Assembly (NCBI GenBank): GCA_048886685.1
Contig: JBHLKM010000001.1
Coordinates: forward strand, 320,001-384,000
Direction: 5' to 3'
Length of the DNA: 64,000 bases
Source of the DNA: Candidatus Hodarchaeota archaeon
GTDB taxonomy: Archaea; Asgardarchaeota; Lokiarchaeia; Sigyniarchaeales; SOKP01
Shown piece by piece: positions 28,757-37,518 of this stretch. The position numbers and the translations under genes are program-made. The notes beneath the pieces are model-generated. The model made no database searches, had not been told where the DNA came from, and saw only the letters and a list, made by a program, of their open reading frames with translations. Numbering within the stretch: the stretch's first letter is position 1; each line of letters opens with the position of its first letter.

Positions 28757-29608
28757 TCAATCTTCTTGTTCTATATTTTCTTGCTCTTTAGTTTCCTCAA
28801 TTTGTTCATTTTTTGATTGTTCTTCAATTGGTTGTTCTTCAATTCCTAACTGAGTAACCATTGCTAGTTTTAGCTGATGTTTATCTTTTGGTAATCCGAA
28901 CATATCAGCATATTTATCTGTTGTTGTTAATTCATGAGTTCTCCCTTTTTTTACAGCATCTATAAAACCATTATCGATAAGATAATTTATGTGTTCATAG
29001 GCTCCTGTTCCTCTCAATTTAATAACAGTTGATTTTAAAATGGGTTGCTTTAAAGCAATTACCGTTAACGTTCGAAGATAACGCTCTGCTATTGCACCAC
29101 CTTTAGCAAATTTAGATACTTTTTCTGTATATTCTGGTTTAATTTGCATTTGGTATCTGTCTCCTATTTGCGCAATTACTAATGCTGTTGAACGGTCGAG
29201 ATAGTCAAATGCAACTTCATTGATTAGTTCTTCTACTTCTTTTTTAGAAAATTCTAATTTATTAGATAATTCCTCTATAGTTAAAGGTCTACCAGCAGCA
29301 TATAAAGAGGCTTCGATTAAATTTCTATGGAATTCTCTCATTTTTTCTTCGAATGATTGCTCTTCAGTAATATCTTCTTCTAATGTTTCAATTTCAATTC
29401 TTTCTTCTAAATTTTCCATAGTTCGTTCTATAATTTCAGATTTTTCTTCTTGAGTTTCATCTGTGATAAATTCCTCGGATTCTACCTCATTTTCATTAAT
29501 CTTGTTCGATTCAATTTCTTCATTTGGGAGTTTTTCAGAGTCTTCTACTATTTCCTCTATCAAATCGTCCTCTTGTGCTTCTTTGAGTTCTTTATCAAAA
29601 CTATTCAT
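28757..29608 (-). CDS. scpB: ScpB (kite subunit) with long acidic N-terminal extension
   Basis: IEASLYAAGRPL, LRTLTVIALKQPI, IKLRG, TTDKYADMFGL; downstream of smc-scpA. Confidence 0.93.
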   Translation of the reverse strand: MNSFDKELKEAQEDDLIEEIVEDSEKLPNEEIESNKINENEVESEEFITDETQEEKSEIIERTMENLEERIEIETLEEDITEEQSFEEKMREFHRNLIEASLYAAGRPLTIEELSNKLEFSKKEVEELINEVAFDYLDRSTALVIAQIGDRYQMQIKPEYTEKVSKFAKGGAIAERYLRTLTVIALKQPILKSTVIKLRGTGAYEHINYLIDNGFIDAVKKGRTHELTTTDKYADMFGLPKDKHQLKLAMVTQLGIEEQPIEEQSKNEQIEETKEQENIEQED

Positions 29609-29638: not shown

Positions 29639-30637
29639 TTATTTAATATCTACTGAAATGTCTCTGAAGTCTTCATCTTGAGCCAAAGTTAATTTATTTC
29701 CTGTGGAAAGAAACATTAGCGCTAAAAACATTCTTACGAGAGCAAATTTTCTGCCTATACTAGTCTCTTCTTCATCTTTTATTATATTTGTTAAATCATA
29801 GAAACTAGTATCCTTGTTGTTTAAATTTATTGTACCCTTAATCCTATTATACCATGATTCGTGTAATTCTTCAACGGTTTGTTCTCTCCCACTAATATGT
29901 TTTAATAATTCTTTTGGTAATTGGGCTTTAGATCTCATTTGGATTTTTTGTTGTTTTAATTCTTCCCGTCTCATTCTCCTTCTTCTTAGTTTTTCTTTAT
30001 TTTGCATTACTTCTATAATTGCTGATCGCATTGCATCAAATAACTCCTCTTTTGTTGCTATTTGCATCTTGGGTTGTATTGGTTGTGGTAATGCTTTTGG
30101 AATTGATCTTGAATGCCTTTGCCGAAATTTTTCTAGTTCTTCTTTTTTTTGAATTTGCTCTTCTTCCCTTATAATACTTGAGATTTTATAATGATGCAAA
30201 TTTGCTGATGTTTTCAGTGCAATACCAGAAATCTTATAATTTATTAATTCTTCATGAAGCATCTTATCAAAAAATTCATCAACTAAACTAGCTAAACCAT
30301 AAAAAGCTATTTCCGATTCTTTAGCTAATTCTGTGTCTAATAGGCTTGAAAATGGCGGTTTTTGCCAAAATTTCAAGTTTATTTTTTCTTTTCTTAATAA
30401 CGCGAGATCTTCATCCTCATCAAAACCAGCTACTAATTCTTCTTCCAATTCTTCGACTTCTTGGGATCGATCAATGAATTCAGGATGTGAAACTATTTTT
30501 TGTAATAATTCAATAATATCATTCTTTTTTGATTTAGACGGGATCTTTATATTATTTTTATTAGCAAACTCTCTTAATTGTTTCACAGTCCATTCATTAA
30601 AATTATATCCCTCACTGGAGTTCGGTTCTTTAGAAAT
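29639..30637 (-). CDS. scpA: ScpA kleisin with N-terminal SAP/HeH-like domain; probable ATT start at 30637
   Basis: INYKISGIAL..A.L...K N-kleisin helix; C-terminal VRMFLALMFL...LAQDEDFRDI winged helix; lies between smc and scpB. The frame is open upstream of the GTG at 30586 as far as TGA 30646. Confidence 0.88.
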   Translation of the reverse strand: MSKEPNSSEGYNFNEWTVKQLREFANKNNIKIPSKSKKNDIIELLQKIVSHPEFIDRSQEVEELEEELVAGFDEDEDLALLRKEKINLKFWQKPPFSSLLDTELAKESEIAFYGLASLVDEFFDKMLHEELINYKISGIALKTSANLHHYKISSIIREEEQIQKKEELEKFRQRHSRSIPKALPQPIQPKMQIATKEELFDAMRSAIIEVMQNKEKLRRRRMRREELKQQKIQMRSKAQLPKELLKHISGREQTVEELHESWYNRIKGTINLNNKDTSFYDLTNIIKDEEETSIGRKFALVRMFLALMFLSTGNKLTLAQDEDFRDISVDIK

Positions 30638-30654: not shown

Positions 30655-33600
30655 TTAATTTTCAGTAACTGTTGGTTCAATATCTTCAAGTTCTAAAAGT
30701 CTCTTCGCCTCTTCCTCTAAATCTACGCTAAAGATATCCGTTATACCACTTTGCTGCATAGAAACGCCATAAATTCTGTCTGAATTTACGATATTCTCCT
30801 CTCTATGGCTAATGACCAAGAATTGCGCTTGACTGGAAAATTCCTTTATAACCATCGAAGTTCTATGTACATTGGGACCATCCAAGGCCGCATCGATCTC
30901 GTCCATAATATAGAACGGCGCGGGATAGAACTCCTGCACGGCAAAGATGAACGAGAGCGCCACAAGAGTTTTTTCACCCCCACTTAAAATTTCGAGGCTT
31001 GAAATTTTTTTCCCGCGCGGTCGAGCTTCGATGCTGATACCACCTTCGAAGGGCTTATCGGGACGGTCTAAAATCATTTTAGCAGAACCACCAGGAGAAA
31101 GTTTTTGAAATATCCGAGAGAATTCTCGATTAATTTCATGATAAGCTTTCATGAATGTACGTGTTTTTTCTAATTCAATTTTATCTATGGCATCGAGGAT
31201 TGATTTTCTTTCCCTTTGGATGGTTTGTCTTCGCATATCAATCTCATCAAATCTTTCCTTTACAGTATCATATTGTTCAATTGCTTTCAAATTAACTGGT
31301 TCAAGAGTTTTTTTATTATTAATTACTTCTACAATTTCAGATTGCAATTCTGGTTCCGAAAGATCCTCTGTAACAGGAGGTAGTGAGCCATATTCTTTAG
31401 AACGTTGAAATAAAGTTTCTATTTGATCCGCACAAATGATCTTTTTGGATTCAAAACTGTTCTTCTTTGAATTTTCCATTGATTGATCTGATTTTAAATC
31501 TGTAATAGTCTTTTGGTATTGCTTTTGTTTCTTCCAAGATTCATCTTTTTCTTGAGTATAATTATCGATCTCCTCCTGTTTTGCATCCTTTTTCCCATTT
31601 TCAGTTTCTAATTCACTTTTAAAATTTTCTAGTTCTTTCATTACAGATTCTATTTGATTTTCAGTATCAATGATTTCTTGATTTAATTCAAGAATTTTTT
31701 GTTCTCTTTCTTTATTCTTATTTAACTCATTTAATCTTTTTTGATGTTTTTGTTGATCCTTATTAAATTTGTTTAATTTCTTTTGGGCGGCTTTTTGTGC
31801 TTCTACTTCTTTAGTTTTCTCACCCCTTAAGGAATCTATTACACTTTGTTTTTGGTCAACATTTACTTGGATCTTATCAACTTCAGAGTTAAGTTCATCT
31901 ACGTTTTTTAGACAAACTTCAACATCATTTTTTGCTTCAATATTCTCTTTTTTAATGTCTTCAATTGAGTTAATGATTCTCATTACGTTTTCAAGTGCGC
32001 GTAGGCGGTCCATGATGTCTTCTAATTCTAGATTTTTTCCTTCGATCTGTTTCTGAATGTTTTCACTTATTTCCCAGAATTTTTCTTTCTGTGAAGTAAG
32101 ATCGTTAATTTCATTTTGAAATGAAGTTTGTTCTTCATGTAATTTTTCAATACTTTCTTCTGTATTAATAATTAAATTTTTCTTTTCTTCGATTGAATTG
32201 TTTATTGTTTGAATATTTTCCTCAATTTCTGATAAATTTTCGAATAAATTCTGAATTCCATGTAATTCCTGCAGATTTTCTCTTAATTTTTCTAATTCTG
32301 CTTGTTCTTTTTCAATGTCCTCTTGAATTTTAGAGATATCATCCCAGTAAGTATCTTTTAGCTCCTCTAATTTCTTTATTTCTTCATCTAATTCTTTAAT
32401 TTCTTTTTCCCTTTCGTTAATTAATTCGTTTCTTTCATTTATTTCTTCTTCAGCTTTTTTAATTCTATCAAGTATCTCTTGATTTCTTTTATTTATTTCT
32501 TCGAGTCTTCGATTAAAAGCAGAAAGATTTTCAGAATCGTGTCTTTTTTGAAGGTTGGCCTCTGTTAATCTTTTCTCAGTGAGATTAAAATCATCCATCT
32601 GAGAGTTTATGTTTTCCGAAATTTCATCAAGTTGTTTGTATAATTCTTGACTCTTTGACATGGTTAGCTTTCTTAAGGATAGGTAAACGTTCTCAAGAAT
32701 TTCCATAAGATCTTGAACAAAATTATCGAAAGTAGTAGTTGAAGCTTGAACTTCTACGTCAGCAGACTCCTTCACTCTCTCAATTAATTGCCCTATTGTG
32801 TCATCAGCATTATCAGTAAATAATTTTAAAGTTTCCATAATAGATTTTAGCATTTCTGTCATTTCTGTAGCTTGTTCTGTAGTATCCCCTATTTCCTCAA
32901 CAGTTCTCATTATATCTACAAGATCTAAAACGAATTTCTTAAAATCTTCAGCTGAAGTCTCAATTGCCTCTGCATTTGATTGCTGTATATTACTTTTTAT
33001 GGATTCAACGGAGATATTAATATTTTGAGTGAGCATGTTTAAAATCTGCAGAATCCCAGTAATATCTGTTGTATTTTTTTCATATTCAGCTTCAGAAGAT
33101 TCAATTTTTTTTAATATACTCTCTTTTTCTTTGGTAAGATCTTCTAAACGTCTTTGAATGTTCATATTTTTATTATTAAACTTTTCGAGATCTTTTTCAA
33201 TATCTAAAATGCTTTTATTCAAAGTAGATACTTGTAAATCTAAATTATTTTTCTCTCGCTCTAATTTAGTTGATTCTTTTGTAAATATTTTCAACTCAGT
33301 ATTAATATTTTCTATCTTTCCCTTGTTGTCATTGATTTCGGAGTCTAAAGAATATTTTTTCATCCGCAGCAATTCTAAATTTTGCTCATTTTTTTTGTAA
33401 ATTGAATTTTGTTCTCTTAATTGTCCTCTTAAATCATTTATTGTTTTGGTTCTATTCTCATTTTCTTTTAATAAATCTTTAACAGCATCCTCTGTATCTT
33501 TACCTTTACTCAATTCCTGAATTCTTTTCTCAATAGAAGTTTTTTTATCATTTAGATTATGAATATTATTGTTATTCATATTAATCTCAGTATTTAATGA

Positions 33601-35109
33601 AGATAAATTAGATTGTAGATTTAATAGTTTTGAATTTAGCTGGTTTTTCTCCTCTTGAATTGAAGTGATTTTATTCTCGAGAGCTTTTTGGTTTTGATTT
33701 TCTTCTACAATTTTAGCTTTTAGGTTATCTATCTGCTTTCTAATTTCGTTTTCTTCCTTTTTTGTATTTTTAATAGCTTCATCAATACTTTCTGCATCTT
33801 TTTTTAGTTTTGCTAACTCAGTTTCTAATTTTATTTTTTTATCTTCATTCTTTTTAATATTATCTTTAAGGACTTTAATTTGAGCTTTATTAGAAGATAT
33901 ATTTTGTTGTATTTTGGAGATTTCTGCATTAAACTGTGATTTTTCTTCCTCATTATCTCTAATTTTTGTATCTATTTCAGCCTGAGTTTGTTGTCTTTTT
34001 TCTATTTCTTTTTTGGCCTGTTCAATGATATTTTCACATTCAGATATATCATTTAAAGCGCTTTCTATCAATGAATCGATGCTTTGATCTTCTTCAAGAA
34101 TCATCTGTAGATTTTCTAAATTTTTAATTTCCTGGGTGAGTTTTTCAATTGATTTTCTGGCGAGGTTTGAAGTGGTTTGGCTGGAAGAGATTTTTGTTTT
34201 TAATTGTGTAATATTCTCATTAATTTCCTCTCTTTCTTTCTCTTTTTCATTTATATTTTTTTGAATGTTATCCATTACGAGTGACTCTTGTTTAAGTAAA
34301 GCCTCTTGTCTACTAATTTTTTCTTTTAATTCTTCAATAATTTTTAAAGAATTTTCTATTTTCTTTTCTAGATCATCTTCTTCTTCTCTTAACTTCGAAA
34401 TTTTTAGTGCTATCAATTGTGAATTTAAAAAATTAATTTTTTCATCTAATTCCTTCCACGCTAGAGCATCATTTTTCTCTTTTTCAACTTTTTTTAGTTG
34501 GGAGGAAACTTCTTTAAAAATTGCTTCAAATTGTCCTAAATCTCTCTCTGCTTTTTCCAATTCCTTTAGTGTTGCATCTTTCATTTCATCATACTTTTGA
34601 AGTCCGATTAGATCCTCAATGAAAAATCTACGTTCTTCTGTATTCATATGTGTTAATTCAACTATCTTACCTTGCAGAACAAACTGATTGCTACCATCAG
34701 GATCAATATTTGCTGCGGCTAAAGCGTTAAGAATTTGCTGACGCGTGGTGTTTTTTCCATTCATTTTGTATCCACCCCCACCACCTCTCTTTATTGTACG
34801 GGTGATTTCAAATGTGTCAGTCCCTCCAGGAAATACATTATCAGAATTATCAAAATACATTGTTACTGATGCTCTTTGTGACGGGTTTTTCCCTCTAGAA
34901 CCTGCAAAAATTAGATCTTCTAAACTCTTAGCCCTCATTGTTTTTTTACTTAACCTCCCTAAGGCGAAGCAAAGAGCATCTATGATATTAGATTTACCTG
35001 CACCATTAGGCCCTACTATGCATGTAAAACCACTTGAAAGTTTGATTGTTACTGTGCGATCTCCAAATGACTTAAAACCAGTCATCGAAATTTTTTTAAT
35101 GTAAGTCAT
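30655..35109 (-). CDS. smc: Smc ATPase (1484 aa) with atypical central domain
   Basis: GFKSF, GPNGAGKSN, VLQG (Q-loop), PVNLKA, LSGGEK, MDEIDAALD, VISH; long coiled coils. Confidence 0.96.
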   Translation of the reverse strand: MTYIKKISMTGFKSFGDRTVTIKLSSGFTCIVGPNGAGKSNIIDALCFALGRLSKKTMRAKSLEDLIFAGSRGKNPSQRASVTMYFDNSDNVFPGGTDTFEITRTIKRGGGGGYKMNGKNTTRQQILNALAAANIDPDGSNQFVLQGKIVELTHMNTEERRFFIEDLIGLQKYDEMKDATLKELEKAERDLGQFEAIFKEVSSQLKKVEKEKNDALAWKELDEKINFLNSQLIALKISKLREEEDDLEKKIENSLKIIEELKEKISRQEALLKQESLVMDNIQKNINEKEKEREEINENITQLKTKISSSQTTSNLARKSIEKLTQEIKNLENLQMILEEDQSIDSLIESALNDISECENIIEQAKKEIEKRQQTQAEIDTKIRDNEEEKSQFNAEISKIQQNISSNKAQIKVLKDNIKKNEDKKIKLETELAKLKKDAESIDEAIKNTKKEENEIRKQIDNLKAKIVEENQNQKALENKITSIQEEKNQLNSKLLNLQSNLSSLNTEINMNNNNIHNLNDKKTSIEKRIQELSKGKDTEDAVKDLLKENENRTKTINDLRGQLREQNSIYKKNEQNLELLRMKKYSLDSEINDNKGKIENINTELKIFTKESTKLEREKNNLDLQVSTLNKSILDIEKDLEKFNNKNMNIQRRLEDLTKEKESILKKIESSEAEYEKNTTDITGILQILNMLTQNINISVESIKSNIQQSNAEAIETSAEDFKKFVLDLVDIMRTVEEIGDTTEQATEMTEMLKSIMETLKLFTDNADDTIGQLIERVKESADVEVQASTTTFDNFVQDLMEILENVYLSLRKLTMSKSQELYKQLDEISENINSQMDDFNLTEKRLTEANLQKRHDSENLSAFNRRLEEINKRNQEILDRIKKAEEEINERNELINEREKEIKELDEEIKKLEELKDTYWDDISKIQEDIEKEQAELEKLRENLQELHGIQNLFENLSEIEENIQTINNSIEEKKNLIINTEESIEKLHEEQTSFQNEINDLTSQKEKFWEISENIQKQIEGKNLELEDIMDRLRALENVMRIINSIEDIKKENIEAKNDVEVCLKNVDELNSEVDKIQVNVDQKQSVIDSLRGEKTKEVEAQKAAQKKLNKFNKDQQKHQKRLNELNKNKEREQKILELNQEIIDTENQIESVMKELENFKSELETENGKKDAKQEEIDNYTQEKDESWKKQKQYQKTITDLKSDQSMENSKKNSFESKKIICADQIETLFQRSKEYGSLPPVTEDLSEPELQSEIVEVINNKKTLEPVNLKAIEQYDTVKERFDEIDMRRQTIQRERKSILDAIDKIELEKTRTFMKAYHEINREFSRIFQKLSPGGSAKMILDRPDKPFEGGISIEARPRGKKISSLEILSGGEKTLVALSFIFAVQEFYPAPFYIMDEIDAALDGPNVHRTSMVIKEFSSQAQFLVISHREENIVNSDRIYGVSMQQSGITDIFSVDLEEEAKRLLELEDIEPTVTEN

Positions 35110-35235: not shown

Positions 35236-36429
35236 TTAGTAATTATCAAACAAGGTATCTATAATTGCTTTTAATTGATTAGGGCTTATTACCATGAAGT
35301 AAGAGTCTGTATTTGTAGTATTATCTAAGAAATGAGGCTTTTTTATTCGTAACGCCTTTTTCGAGAGTCTTAGTATTCCAATATTTAATAATTCTTTAAT
35401 TAAGTTCTGGAATTCGTTTACATTTTTCTCATATTCTAAAGATTCACAAGATATATAATATAATTCTTCTAATTCCTTTAAAGAAACGTAATAATTTATC
35501 TTACTAATGAAATAATTTGAAAGATTATCCAAAAATATTATAGTTAAAAAATCCTCTTCAGAAATGTAATTTAAGATACTAAACTCATCATGAATTTGCA
35601 TTTGATCAAAATGAGTTTGACAAAGTTCTATTAGTTCACAATTTTTAATAATTTGTTTATTTTTTAATATTGGATATAGATCTCGAAGAATTTCAATTCC
35701 TTTTCCTGGAACAGGAACATACTGTTCACAGACTAAATCTGTTATATATTTAATTAATTCCTCATCCACCGTATGTGAAATTGTTAATAAAGTTCGTTGT
35801 TTTAAGATAGAATATAATTCCTTGTATGTGAAATAATTCAACTTTTTTTTTAAATCGAACTCAGATAATAAATCAATTGTTATAGGCCGCAAAATTTTAT
35901 TTATTGTATATATGGAAGTAATGTTTATTTCTTTCCCAATATGCAAAAATTTCTTAAATATTTCAGGTTTCAAATATTCTACATTTGTAAAAACAAAAAA
36001 AAGATTATTATCGATTTTTCTGCATAATAATTTAAATACATTCCATAAATGTGATAGGTTTGAATTTAAGAGGGAGTCATAGTTAATATTGAACTTATGC
36101 ATATTTAATAATTCTGTTAATATTGAGAATATCAATTCTTCGAAATTTTTTTCTTTGCAATCAATATAAATTTTATGAATATCAATATTATCTTCATTTT
36201 GTAGTGATAGATCATTGATTACTTTATTCACAATTGCTTTTTTCCCAATTCCATTAATGCCTTGATATAAAATATTGAGATTGAACTCATCAGATATTGA
36301 ATCACGCAAAATAGAAATTAATGAGTTCTGTTCTTTCTTACGGTACAACAATTGAGGGGGGATATAATTCGGGTCAAATAAAGCTTTAGGTCCAACAAAA
36401 TTTTGACTAATATCTAGTTTAAATGTCAT
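35236..36429 (-). CDS. Degenerate Cdc6/Orc1-family AAA+ protein
   Basis: LFDPNYIPPQLLYR, YQGINGIGKK (altered Walker A), YIDC, YTYKELYSILKQR, C-terminal winged helix (LKELEELY...C...LLNIGIL). Confidence 0.8.
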   Translation of the reverse strand: MTFKLDISQNFVGPKALFDPNYIPPQLLYRKKEQNSLISILRDSISDEFNLNILYQGINGIGKKAIVNKVINDLSLQNEDNIDIHKIYIDCKEKNFEELIFSILTELLNMHKFNINYDSLLNSNLSHLWNVFKLLCRKIDNNLFFVFTNVEYLKPEIFKKFLHIGKEINITSIYTINKILRPITIDLLSEFDLKKKLNYFTYKELYSILKQRTLLTISHTVDEELIKYITDLVCEQYVPVPGKGIEILRDLYPILKNKQIIKNCELIELCQTHFDQMQIHDEFSILNYISEEDFLTIIFLDNLSNYFISKINYYVSLKELEELYYISCESLEYEKNVNEFQNLIKELLNIGILRLSKKALRIKKPHFLDNTTNTDSYFMVISPNQLKAIIDTLFDNY

Positions 36430-36561: not shown

Positions 36562-37518
36562 TCATTCAAAACTTTCCAATAAATTTTTCAGGTTATCAGC
36601 TAAAATGGGTAAGTATTCATAAGACTTGTTTTTTACATTTTTATTTAAACAAAGCGTAACCAAATAAAATCGAGTATTGTTAATATCTAGTTTTCTAAGA
36701 AAAATTATACCTTCTTTTTGAGACTCTGAGCGTTCTTGTGAAAATTCGATATTAGTTACAATATCGACAGTGCTTATATCCCATTCCTCTAATTTTTCTA
36801 ATGCTTGAGTTAATCTTGGGGCTACAGACTCACATATCTTCTGATAATCATCATCTGTAGATCTGCTGGCAATTATAAAACAATTTTGGTCTAACAAAAG
36901 TGTAGAGCTATTGTATGTTTTGCTCATGTAGTCCTTTAGTAGAGTTTGAAACATATTAGACTTATAAGTAGCATAAAAAGCACCATCAGAAAAAGCTTTT
37001 AATAAGGTTGGAGCATCATAAATTGAAGTTCTAAAAATAGAATATTTTATATCTTTAATAATTGATGAGATTTTTGATTCAAAAAAGGATATATTTTCCA
37101 ATATTTCCTTCCTTTTTTTAATATCTGGGTCACATTTGTGTAATAATATTAAGAATTGAAAATTGTCAGGATGGGAATCTGTAGTAATAGCTACGATATC
37201 TTTTAGAAAAATTAATGATTCTTCAAATTTTTCAGGTACTTGTATATCTATAACATAAAATATTGATTGCATATCAGTAAAATATTTGCTTTTATCACCT
37301 AAGTATATTTTTCTATAACTTTTTTGGCCTCCCAAATCCCAACGGATAAGTGAAATTCCTAATAAGGAGTTAGTATGAACAGTTCTTTTAGCTTTTATGG
37401 TAGGTTTAACAGTTGGTAATAAACTAAACTTTTTATCTAATAATAGCAGAATCGATGTTTTGCCCCCGTTTTCTAACCCGCAAAAAAGGATCTTTTTAAG
37501 TTCTTTAGATTTGCTCAT
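36562..37518 (-). CDS. Small GTPase (Arf/Rag-like) with C-terminal roadblock/longin-like domain
   Basis: GLENGGKTS, PT, WDLGGQ, HKCD, TSIY; about 130-aa alpha/beta tail. Confidence 0.88.
   Translation of the reverse strand: MSKSKELKKILFCGLENGGKTSILLLLDKKFSLLPTVKPTIKAKRTVHTNSLLGISLIRWDLGGQKSYRKIYLGDKSKYFTDMQSIFYVIDIQVPEKFEESLIFLKDIVAITTDSHPDNFQFLILLHKCDPDIKKRKEILENISFFESKISSIIKDIKYSIFRTSIYDAPTLLKAFSDGAFYATYKSNMFQTLLKDYMSKTYNSSTLLLDQNCFIIASRSTDDDYQKICESVAPRLTQALEKLEEWDISTVDIVTNIEFSQERSESQKEGIIFLRKLDINNTRFYLVTLCLNKNVKNKSYEYLPILADNLKNLLESFE

Follow-up and report, generated by a model that had tools for sequence, protein, structure and literature searches.

A hinge-less condensin-type Smc with an internally duplicated helical apex in one order of Asgard archaea

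The window analysed here, a stretch of 64,000 nucleotides, belongs to an Asgard genome of 4.4 Mb (100% complete, 47 contigs), and close homologues carry the taxon labels Promethearchaeota or Lokiarchaeota. Its minus strand encodes, in the order smc, scpA, scpB, an operon with the following features, given in window positions:

30655..35109, minus strand: smc, open reading frame for a condensin-type, hinge-less Smc of 1484 aa
34600..35109, minus strand: N-terminal head half (aa 1-170) with Walker A and Q-loop, from the sequence and Pfam SMC_N
33301..34182, minus strand: N-strand distal arm (aa 310-603), three in-register repeats of ~98 aa (hhalign, full length: N1/N2 E 4.5e-13, N2/N3 E 7.9e-16)
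32632..33078, minus strand: helical apex module at the hinge position (aa 678-826), acidic, net charge -14, from alignments, an AlphaFold hairpin, and a charge count
32899..33063, minus strand: apex unit 1 (aa 683-737), ascending helix, period 3.67
32851..32898, minus strand: tip turn (aa 738-753), variable, with insertions of up to 7 aa, from the alignment and a helix break at model residues 103-107
32686..32850, minus strand: apex unit 2 (aa 754-808), descending helix, period 3.66
31525..32364, minus strand: C-strand distal arm (aa 916-1195), three repeats of ~90 aa (hhalign C1/C2 E 1.3e-15; self-diagonals at 90 and 180)
30700..31152, minus strand: C-terminal head half with signature LSGGEK, Walker B/D-loop, and H-loop, conserved in 64 full-length homologues
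29639..30637, minus strand: scpA, kleisin (hhalign 99.8% to canonical Asgard ScpA)
28757..29608, minus strand: scpB, kite protein with an acidic N-terminal extension (PF04079 E 1e-33; TIGR00281 above cut-off)

The Smc protein scored 608 bits against TIGR02168, above the cut-off of 567, and 618 against TIGR02169, below the cut-off of 729. Its split ABC ATPase head is complete, with Walker A, Q-loop, signature, Walker B/D-loop, and H-loop, and the canonical head motifs read by an earlier note on this DNA were borne out by the sequence and by Pfam SMC_N. The condensin-type smc-scpA-scpB operon described in that note also held: ScpA, which scored weakly in Pfam, aligned to canonical Asgard ScpA over 215 columns (E 1.7e-28) with both conserved terminal domains present, and ScpB matched its families as listed above. 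The scpA gene did not adjoin smc in ~10 of the 55 loci having downstream sequence, and the physical binding of ScpB to ScpA has been doubted for some archaea (PMC7055376).

In the known complexes, the SMC hinge normally joins two Smc molecules. For the segment 32640-33075 (minus strand; aa 679-824), the earlier note had reported neither a hinge signature nor a CxxC motif in the Smc centre, and motif inspection, Pfam, and an Asgard hinge profile all agreed. No GR.TFLPL-like motif, Gx6Gx3GG, or CxxC was found by inspection of the sequence between the heads; cysteines occurred there at positions 358, 1066, and 1226 only, which does not make the zinc hook of Rad50 and ASRP, and the apex contained three Gly and zero Pro. 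Pfam gave no SMC_hinge match in the Smc at E up to 1, and none in 32 homologous apices. A profile built from 30 Asgard hinges, which as a positive control detected a divergent SMC5/6-like hinge at 88.9%, found nothing in 26 Smcs of the hinge-less type, the profile-profile comparison reaching at most 0.4%; the hinge-profile scan of the apex suggested earlier was likewise without a match. The AlphaFold model of the apex contained no strands, and solved hinge structures aligned to it through their coiled coils only. Homology to canonical Smc covered ~aa 1-290 and ~1200 to the end, and the region between is new. This Smc does not have the alpha/beta hinge of Smc-ScpAB. That the apex is a hinge diverged past recognition is largely refuted and very improbable: among the hinge-bearing relatives, those closest in the best tree do score weakly for the hinge (Pfam E 1e-6 to 1e-11 vs ~1e-32 elsewhere), but the profile ceiling, the lack of predicted strands, the coiled-coil-only structural alignments, and the stop of canonical homology near aa 290 with its restart near aa 1200 all count against it.

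The two units of the apex start at aa 683 and 754, 71 apart, and align gap-free with 13 of 55 residues identical; the earlier description of two such 55-aa units sharing T.N, two Ser, and F..FV.DL..I...V was confirmed in the sequence and by hhalign. In the single sequence, the unit-unit score of 69 exceeded those of all 1000 shuffles (maximum, 51) but lay below the best self-matches of the Smc's own coiled coil (96, 86, and 83), and a profile test was therefore needed. Profiles of unit 1 and unit 2 from 45 homologues matched at 98.6% (hhalign E 6e-16), and unit-versus-flank controls reached at most 1.4%. For the single apex, AlphaFold predicted two helices joined by a short turn near aa 742-746, which make a plain hairpin (pLDDT, 79.9; pTM, 0.44; 45 sequences); the apex pLDDT in the Smc model was 61-78. 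The all-helical, internally duplicated apex proposed from the letters alone was thus upheld by predicted helices without strands and by the profile match. Internal duplication often yields pseudo-symmetric single-chain bundles, and the confidence of the apex model is modest, so each 55-aa unit might instead break into two short helices and form an intramolecular four-helix cap whose surface makes the dimer contact. We consider this improbable, since the AlphaFold helices run continuously through both units, which contain no Pro or conserved Gly and keep the 3.67 period throughout.

In composition, the apex differed from its flanks. The hydrophobic fraction was 0.37-0.40 in the apex versus 0.21-0.26 in the flanks, charged residues were at roughly half of the flank level on the N side, and the helical period was 3.67 (11-residue, hendecad) versus 3.5 in the flanks. 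The hydrophobic face, as measured, exceeds the width needed by two helices; wide hendecad stripes typically occur in bundles with more than two helices. Net charge ranged from -11 to -22 in Smc apices, compared with -12 to +15 in canonical hinge windows. Order-wide mean conservation was 0.56-0.59 in the apex and 0.43-0.64 in the arms, a difference so slight that conservation was not weighed as strong evidence.

A Foldseek search with the apex hairpin gave no significant match, with chemoreceptor rows on top at E 0.03. The chemoreceptor cytoplasmic domain is a long helical hairpin that dimerises as a parallel four-helix bundle, and it is at most an analogue of the apex: its Gly-rich tip is not present there, the apex tip is variable, MCPsignal (PF00015) was not among the Pfam matches of the 32 apices, and the PDB sequence match had an E of about 0.5. 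Structural searching of the apex model returned the Smc arm structures 5xg2 and 5nnv; RecN and the MukB hinge were absent among the structural matches listed, an absence that does not exclude a relationship, and the apex sequence gave no match to RecN. An atlas feature search returned nothing at 0.9, and an atlas shape search returned one unnamed cluster (TM, 0.83). An ESMFold2 homodimer prediction of the apex scored 0.00 and carries no weight either way.

The length and make-up of the arms had been overlooked in the earlier note: they are ~95-190 aa longer per strand and, judging from their repeats, their distal parts are rebuilt from 98/90-aa cassettes. The distance from Walker A to the apex was 645-646 aa in all 64 full-length homologues, and that from the apex to the signature was 547-549 aa; the fold-back turn is the midpoint between the heads, and the arms of ~500 aa have the layout of a long antiparallel coiled coil. 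This constancy bears on a rejected explanation, an assembly artefact or frameshift, since the open frame and the lengths recur in dozens of genomes, single-contig ones included. A second length class, labelled Sigynarchaeota, comprised proteins of 1296-1299 aa with strands ~96 and 90 aa shorter, which equals one cassette. Burmann et al. reported a functional period of 91 aa for Smc arms, with natural modes of 341, 423, and 515 aa (PMC5344682). The step between the two length classes fits the 91-aa period whatever apex boundary is chosen, and the classes match the 423- and 515-aa modes, a match that depends on where the apex boundary is set. One cassette corresponds to one super-helical period, so that the head-to-tip phase would be kept.

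The apex module turned up in 105 of the 121 other genomes searched within the order, and a search of 7 genomes from other orders of the class did not find it. Among 1.84 billion proteins, the strong matches were hinge-less Smcs, fragments, and one non-SMC family, and the weak ones were unrelated helical proteins, such as a tape-measure-like protein. The hinge-less clade corresponds to the order of Promethearchaeum and includes P. syntrophicum MK-D1, recognised by its gene DSAG12_01461, and a 6.04-Mb single-contig genome. Other sampled Asgard Smcs were ~1190 aa long, and 12 of 13 tested had a Pfam hinge; in this survey of Asgard Smcs, which had been suggested earlier, the apex module was confined to one order. 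A second Smc of another Asgard family (L063:1089-4610; 1174 aa) had no Pfam hinge within the middle 400 aa at a threshold of E 0.001. In the head tree, the hinge-less Smcs formed one clade (100/100; stem, 0.58) among condensin-type Smcs and far from SMC5/6-like ones. In the best tree, the sister group of this clade (95/93) contained Lokiarchaeia Smcs that bear a hinge, and AU tests left the exact sister unfixed (p 0.30 and 0.06). Because all other clades tested bear hinges, hinge loss is a derived state that does not lie on the line leading to eukaryotes. The earlier note's claim of a particular bearing on SMC evolution near eukaryotes was therefore not sustained: the module is limited to one Lokiarchaeia order, and other sampled Asgard lineages are hinge-bearing. 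The nearest hinge-bearing relatives (L090-L092, L064) had weak hinges, with Pfam E of 1e-5 to 1e-11 versus ~1e-32 elsewhere, which suggests, from these sequences, that hinge decay preceded replacement.

No second condensin-type Smc was found in the source genome. As to a second hinge-bearing Smc of any kind, a possibility raised earlier, an SMC5/6-like one was found on contig C14, and none was of the condensin type. The SMC5/6-related operon on C14 (L010:9652-14321) encodes a hinge-bearing SMC of 1155 aa, a kleisin-like protein of 216 aa, and a kite-sized product of 178 aa, and its kleisin-like gene matched ScpA at 48.7% in hhalign. The partners of the hinge-less Smc are of the ScpA and ScpB type and are not the separate Nse4-like kleisin and Nse1/3-like kite of an SMC5/6-related complex. 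Pairing of the two SMC proteins in a heterodimer was rejected, as the hinge-less Smc offers no hinge for pairing and each has its own partner genes. Rad50 lies on contig C17 with Mre11-, HerA-, and NurA-like genes; the hinge-less smc locus had no Mre11 partner gene, its neighbours being scpA and scpB.

Of 60 near-complete genomes in the family, 8 had a strong canonical hinge, two of these as short stand-alone proteins. In the other 52, the source genome included, the hinge-less Smc is consequently the only condensin-type Smc detected. Supply of the hinge in trans was considered, and stand-alone hinge proteins occurred in only 2 of the 60 genomes; these proteins (L190:4219-4917 and L191:4524-5258; one genus) are 233-245 aa long and combine a strong SMC hinge (E 4e-28) with a short coil. 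An additional full-length hinge-bearing condensin-type Smc was present in MK-D1, in the 6.0-Mb genome, and in 6 family members, and the hinge-less one could therefore have another job there. The hinge-bearing condensin-type clade (L067, L077, L078, L096-L098, L103, and L104) covers part of the order, and an ScpB-like gene often follows, with no adjoining scpA. Van Hooff et al. described an MK-D1 smc-kleisin-kite cluster as condensin/cohesin-related, and the hinge is not mentioned. Since no kleisin-sized match lay beside the hinge-bearing condensin-type Smc of MK-D1 in the locus that was read, that cluster is probably the hinge-less Smc operon. One RNA run contained the MK-D1 operon in long flat contigs across genes, a pattern that cannot indicate transcription.

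The non-SMC family with strong apex matches, the DSAG12_01461 family, carries two apex modules in tandem, flanking coil, an apparently beta-rich region, and a Lys-rich tail. Its members (L056:2984-5746 in MK-D1; L053-L061) are uncharacterised proteins of 920-1290 aa, had no Pfam family above cut-off, and were found in family f2 only. AlphaFold modelled the tandem with higher confidence than the single hairpin (pLDDT, 87.6; pTM, 0.61; 16 sequences). The model aligned to all 188 of 188 residues of the up-down four-helix bundle 4uos, presumably a hendecad, right-handed design, over model residues 49-438 (rmsd, 3.4; Z, 13.8), although a Z of about 13 is a level that helical bundles reach through chance arrangement. 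Bundles of the b562 type aligned over residues 84-395, across both modules, and Foldseek with the tandem gave one helical match, which was uninformative. With the geometry deduced from aligned ranges and not from coordinates, the tandem modules are predicted to pack tip to tip as a four-helix bundle; the up-down-up-down topology brings the two tips together, which is the geometry required for an Smc dimer. This prediction is limited to a paralogous non-SMC protein, in which the covalent link favours packing.

Our main reading, to which we assign a probability of roughly 0.65, is that a working Smc-ScpAB had its hinge replaced by a new apex for dimerisation, and, with equal confidence, that two Smcs pair tip to tip through a four-helix bundle that closes the ring. 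Of the earlier note's dimerisation apex in a condensin-type complex, the complex and the helical apex stand, and dimerisation is the best reading of the hydrophobic pattern, the quantised arm length, and the predicted bundle of the tandem protein. Each Smc is modelled as folding back at ~aa 745 into an antiparallel coiled coil, in which the two 55-aa units would make a hairpin with hendecad period. The four-helix bundle formed by two such hairpins, lying side by side with their tips together, would then close the Smc-Smc-ScpA ring, a task that falls to the hinge in other Smcs. The conservation of the ancestral heads, head-proximal arm, and kleisin and kite suggests that ATP drives the rod-to-ring cycle and DNA translocation as it usually does. 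The parts that handle DNA may be the heads, the arms, and the kleisin, in line with segment-capture models, and an acidic tip without a toroid makes DNA binding or entry at the tip unlikely. The wider proposal, of a natural hinge-free SMC-kleisin motor that extrudes DNA loops with arms of whole super-helical periods and a rigid four-helix bundle neither opening nor binding DNA, is evenly balanced between true and false.

The wide hydrophobic face and the acidic charge indicate the need for a partner of some kind, and the non-SMC family that shares the module has a Lys-rich tail and could pair with it. The apex might thus bind something other than a second Smc, for example a tether in the cell envelope or a coiled-coil protein, be it the two-module one or another, leaving the Smc pair an open V held at the heads by ATP and ScpA. 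This is unlikely: the two-module family is found in f2 only, whereas the Smc apex spans the order, and an arm length fixed to one super-helical period is best explained by tied tips. Little different in probability, if slightly lower, is an antiparallel self-association with the tail-to-tail contacts of RecN, or an assembly into higher oligomers, that bridges distant DNA sites or forms chains in place of a single ring; the direct repeat does lend the hairpin a pseudo-symmetry allowing either orientation. RecN is an SMC-like ATPase with its dimer interface in apical helices (PMC4255302), but it is a bacterial repair protein with short arms and no kleisin or kite, and the long-armed Smc studied here comes with ScpB and an ScpA having both conserved ends. 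The fit of the tandem model to up-down-up-down bundles, which implies tips together, also favours the tip-to-tip dimer over an antiparallel one.

Compared with prokaryotic Smc-ScpAB (B. subtilis, Pyrococcus, and Thermococcus; TIGR02168/TIGR02169), the complex shares the head motifs, the head-proximal arm, ScpA, ScpB, the gene order, and an arm length on the ~91-aa periodic ladder. It differs in an acidic hendecad hairpin for the alpha/beta hinge, in 98/90-aa repeat arms, in being ~290 aa longer, and in an extra N-terminal Rho_N/LEM-like motif in the ScpA of this family. The Smc thus descends from Smc-ScpAB and would work like it, but lacks its hinge. Rad50, ASRP/ClsN/Sph, and LmuB are likewise hinge-free coiled-coil ABC ATPases, but most members have a CxxC zinc hook, and Rad50 lacks kleisins (PMC10586767, PMC9389158). 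In B. subtilis Smc(Zh), a Rad50 zinc hook in place of the hinge works, with the arm-length rule kept (PMC5344682); it is also a kleisin-bearing Smc with an unrelated tip and periodic arm length, but it is artificial and metal-dependent, and the replacement here is natural, order-wide, and cysteine-free. That the hinge fold is already replaceable in B. subtilis tempers the surprise, and the 98/90-aa cassettes are a natural counterpart of that engineered arm-length periodicity.

Reviews pair the SMC hinge with a kleisin, as against zinc-hook Rad50 without one (PMC10586767), and a hinge-less Smc with a kleisin breaks this pairing in nature. A literature search, with subscription journals outside its coverage, found no paper describing this hinge-less Smc. 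Loop-extrusion models disagree on whether the hinge admits or grips DNA. Models that treat the tip as just a joint would gain from a tip that is acidic and toroid-free in an Smc which, in many genomes, is the only one of condensin type. The proposed hinge-free loop-extruding motor, if true, would make hinge gating and hinge-DNA contact dispensable for the core SMC mechanism. The presence of the hinge-less Smc in the cultured P. syntrophicum MK-D1 offers a natural test of the purpose of the SMC hinge.

The scpA gene probably starts at an ATT codon (window 30637, minus strand). This codon follows a GGTGA Shine-Dalgarno motif at a distance of 6 nt, and the reading frame is closed by a stop codon a short way upstream; the ORF finder picks a GTG at 30586. 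Among loci L114-L188, 43 of 49 had no in-frame ATG before the conserved N-terminal motif, and 39 of those 43 had ATT, ATA, or ATC at the start place. The ScpA N-terminus (window 30497-30600, minus strand) contains a helix-extension-helix motif, with Rho_N and Ish1 above Pfam cut-offs and an HeH/LEM match. This Rho_N/LEM/SAP-like N-terminus is shared in the family of the source genome, ScpA of family f2 having a Lys-rich N-terminus instead, and one may speculate that the motif could contribute DNA binding. Directly upstream of smc is a divergent orc1/cdc6-like gene (window 35236-36429) that scores below family cut-offs and is likewise upstream in L193. Beyond it (window 36562-37518) lies a gene for a small GTPase of Rag/Arf-like type, which matches Gtr1_RagA at E 2e-22 and is extended at its C-terminus; it is typical of the eukaryotic signature proteins of Asgard archaea.
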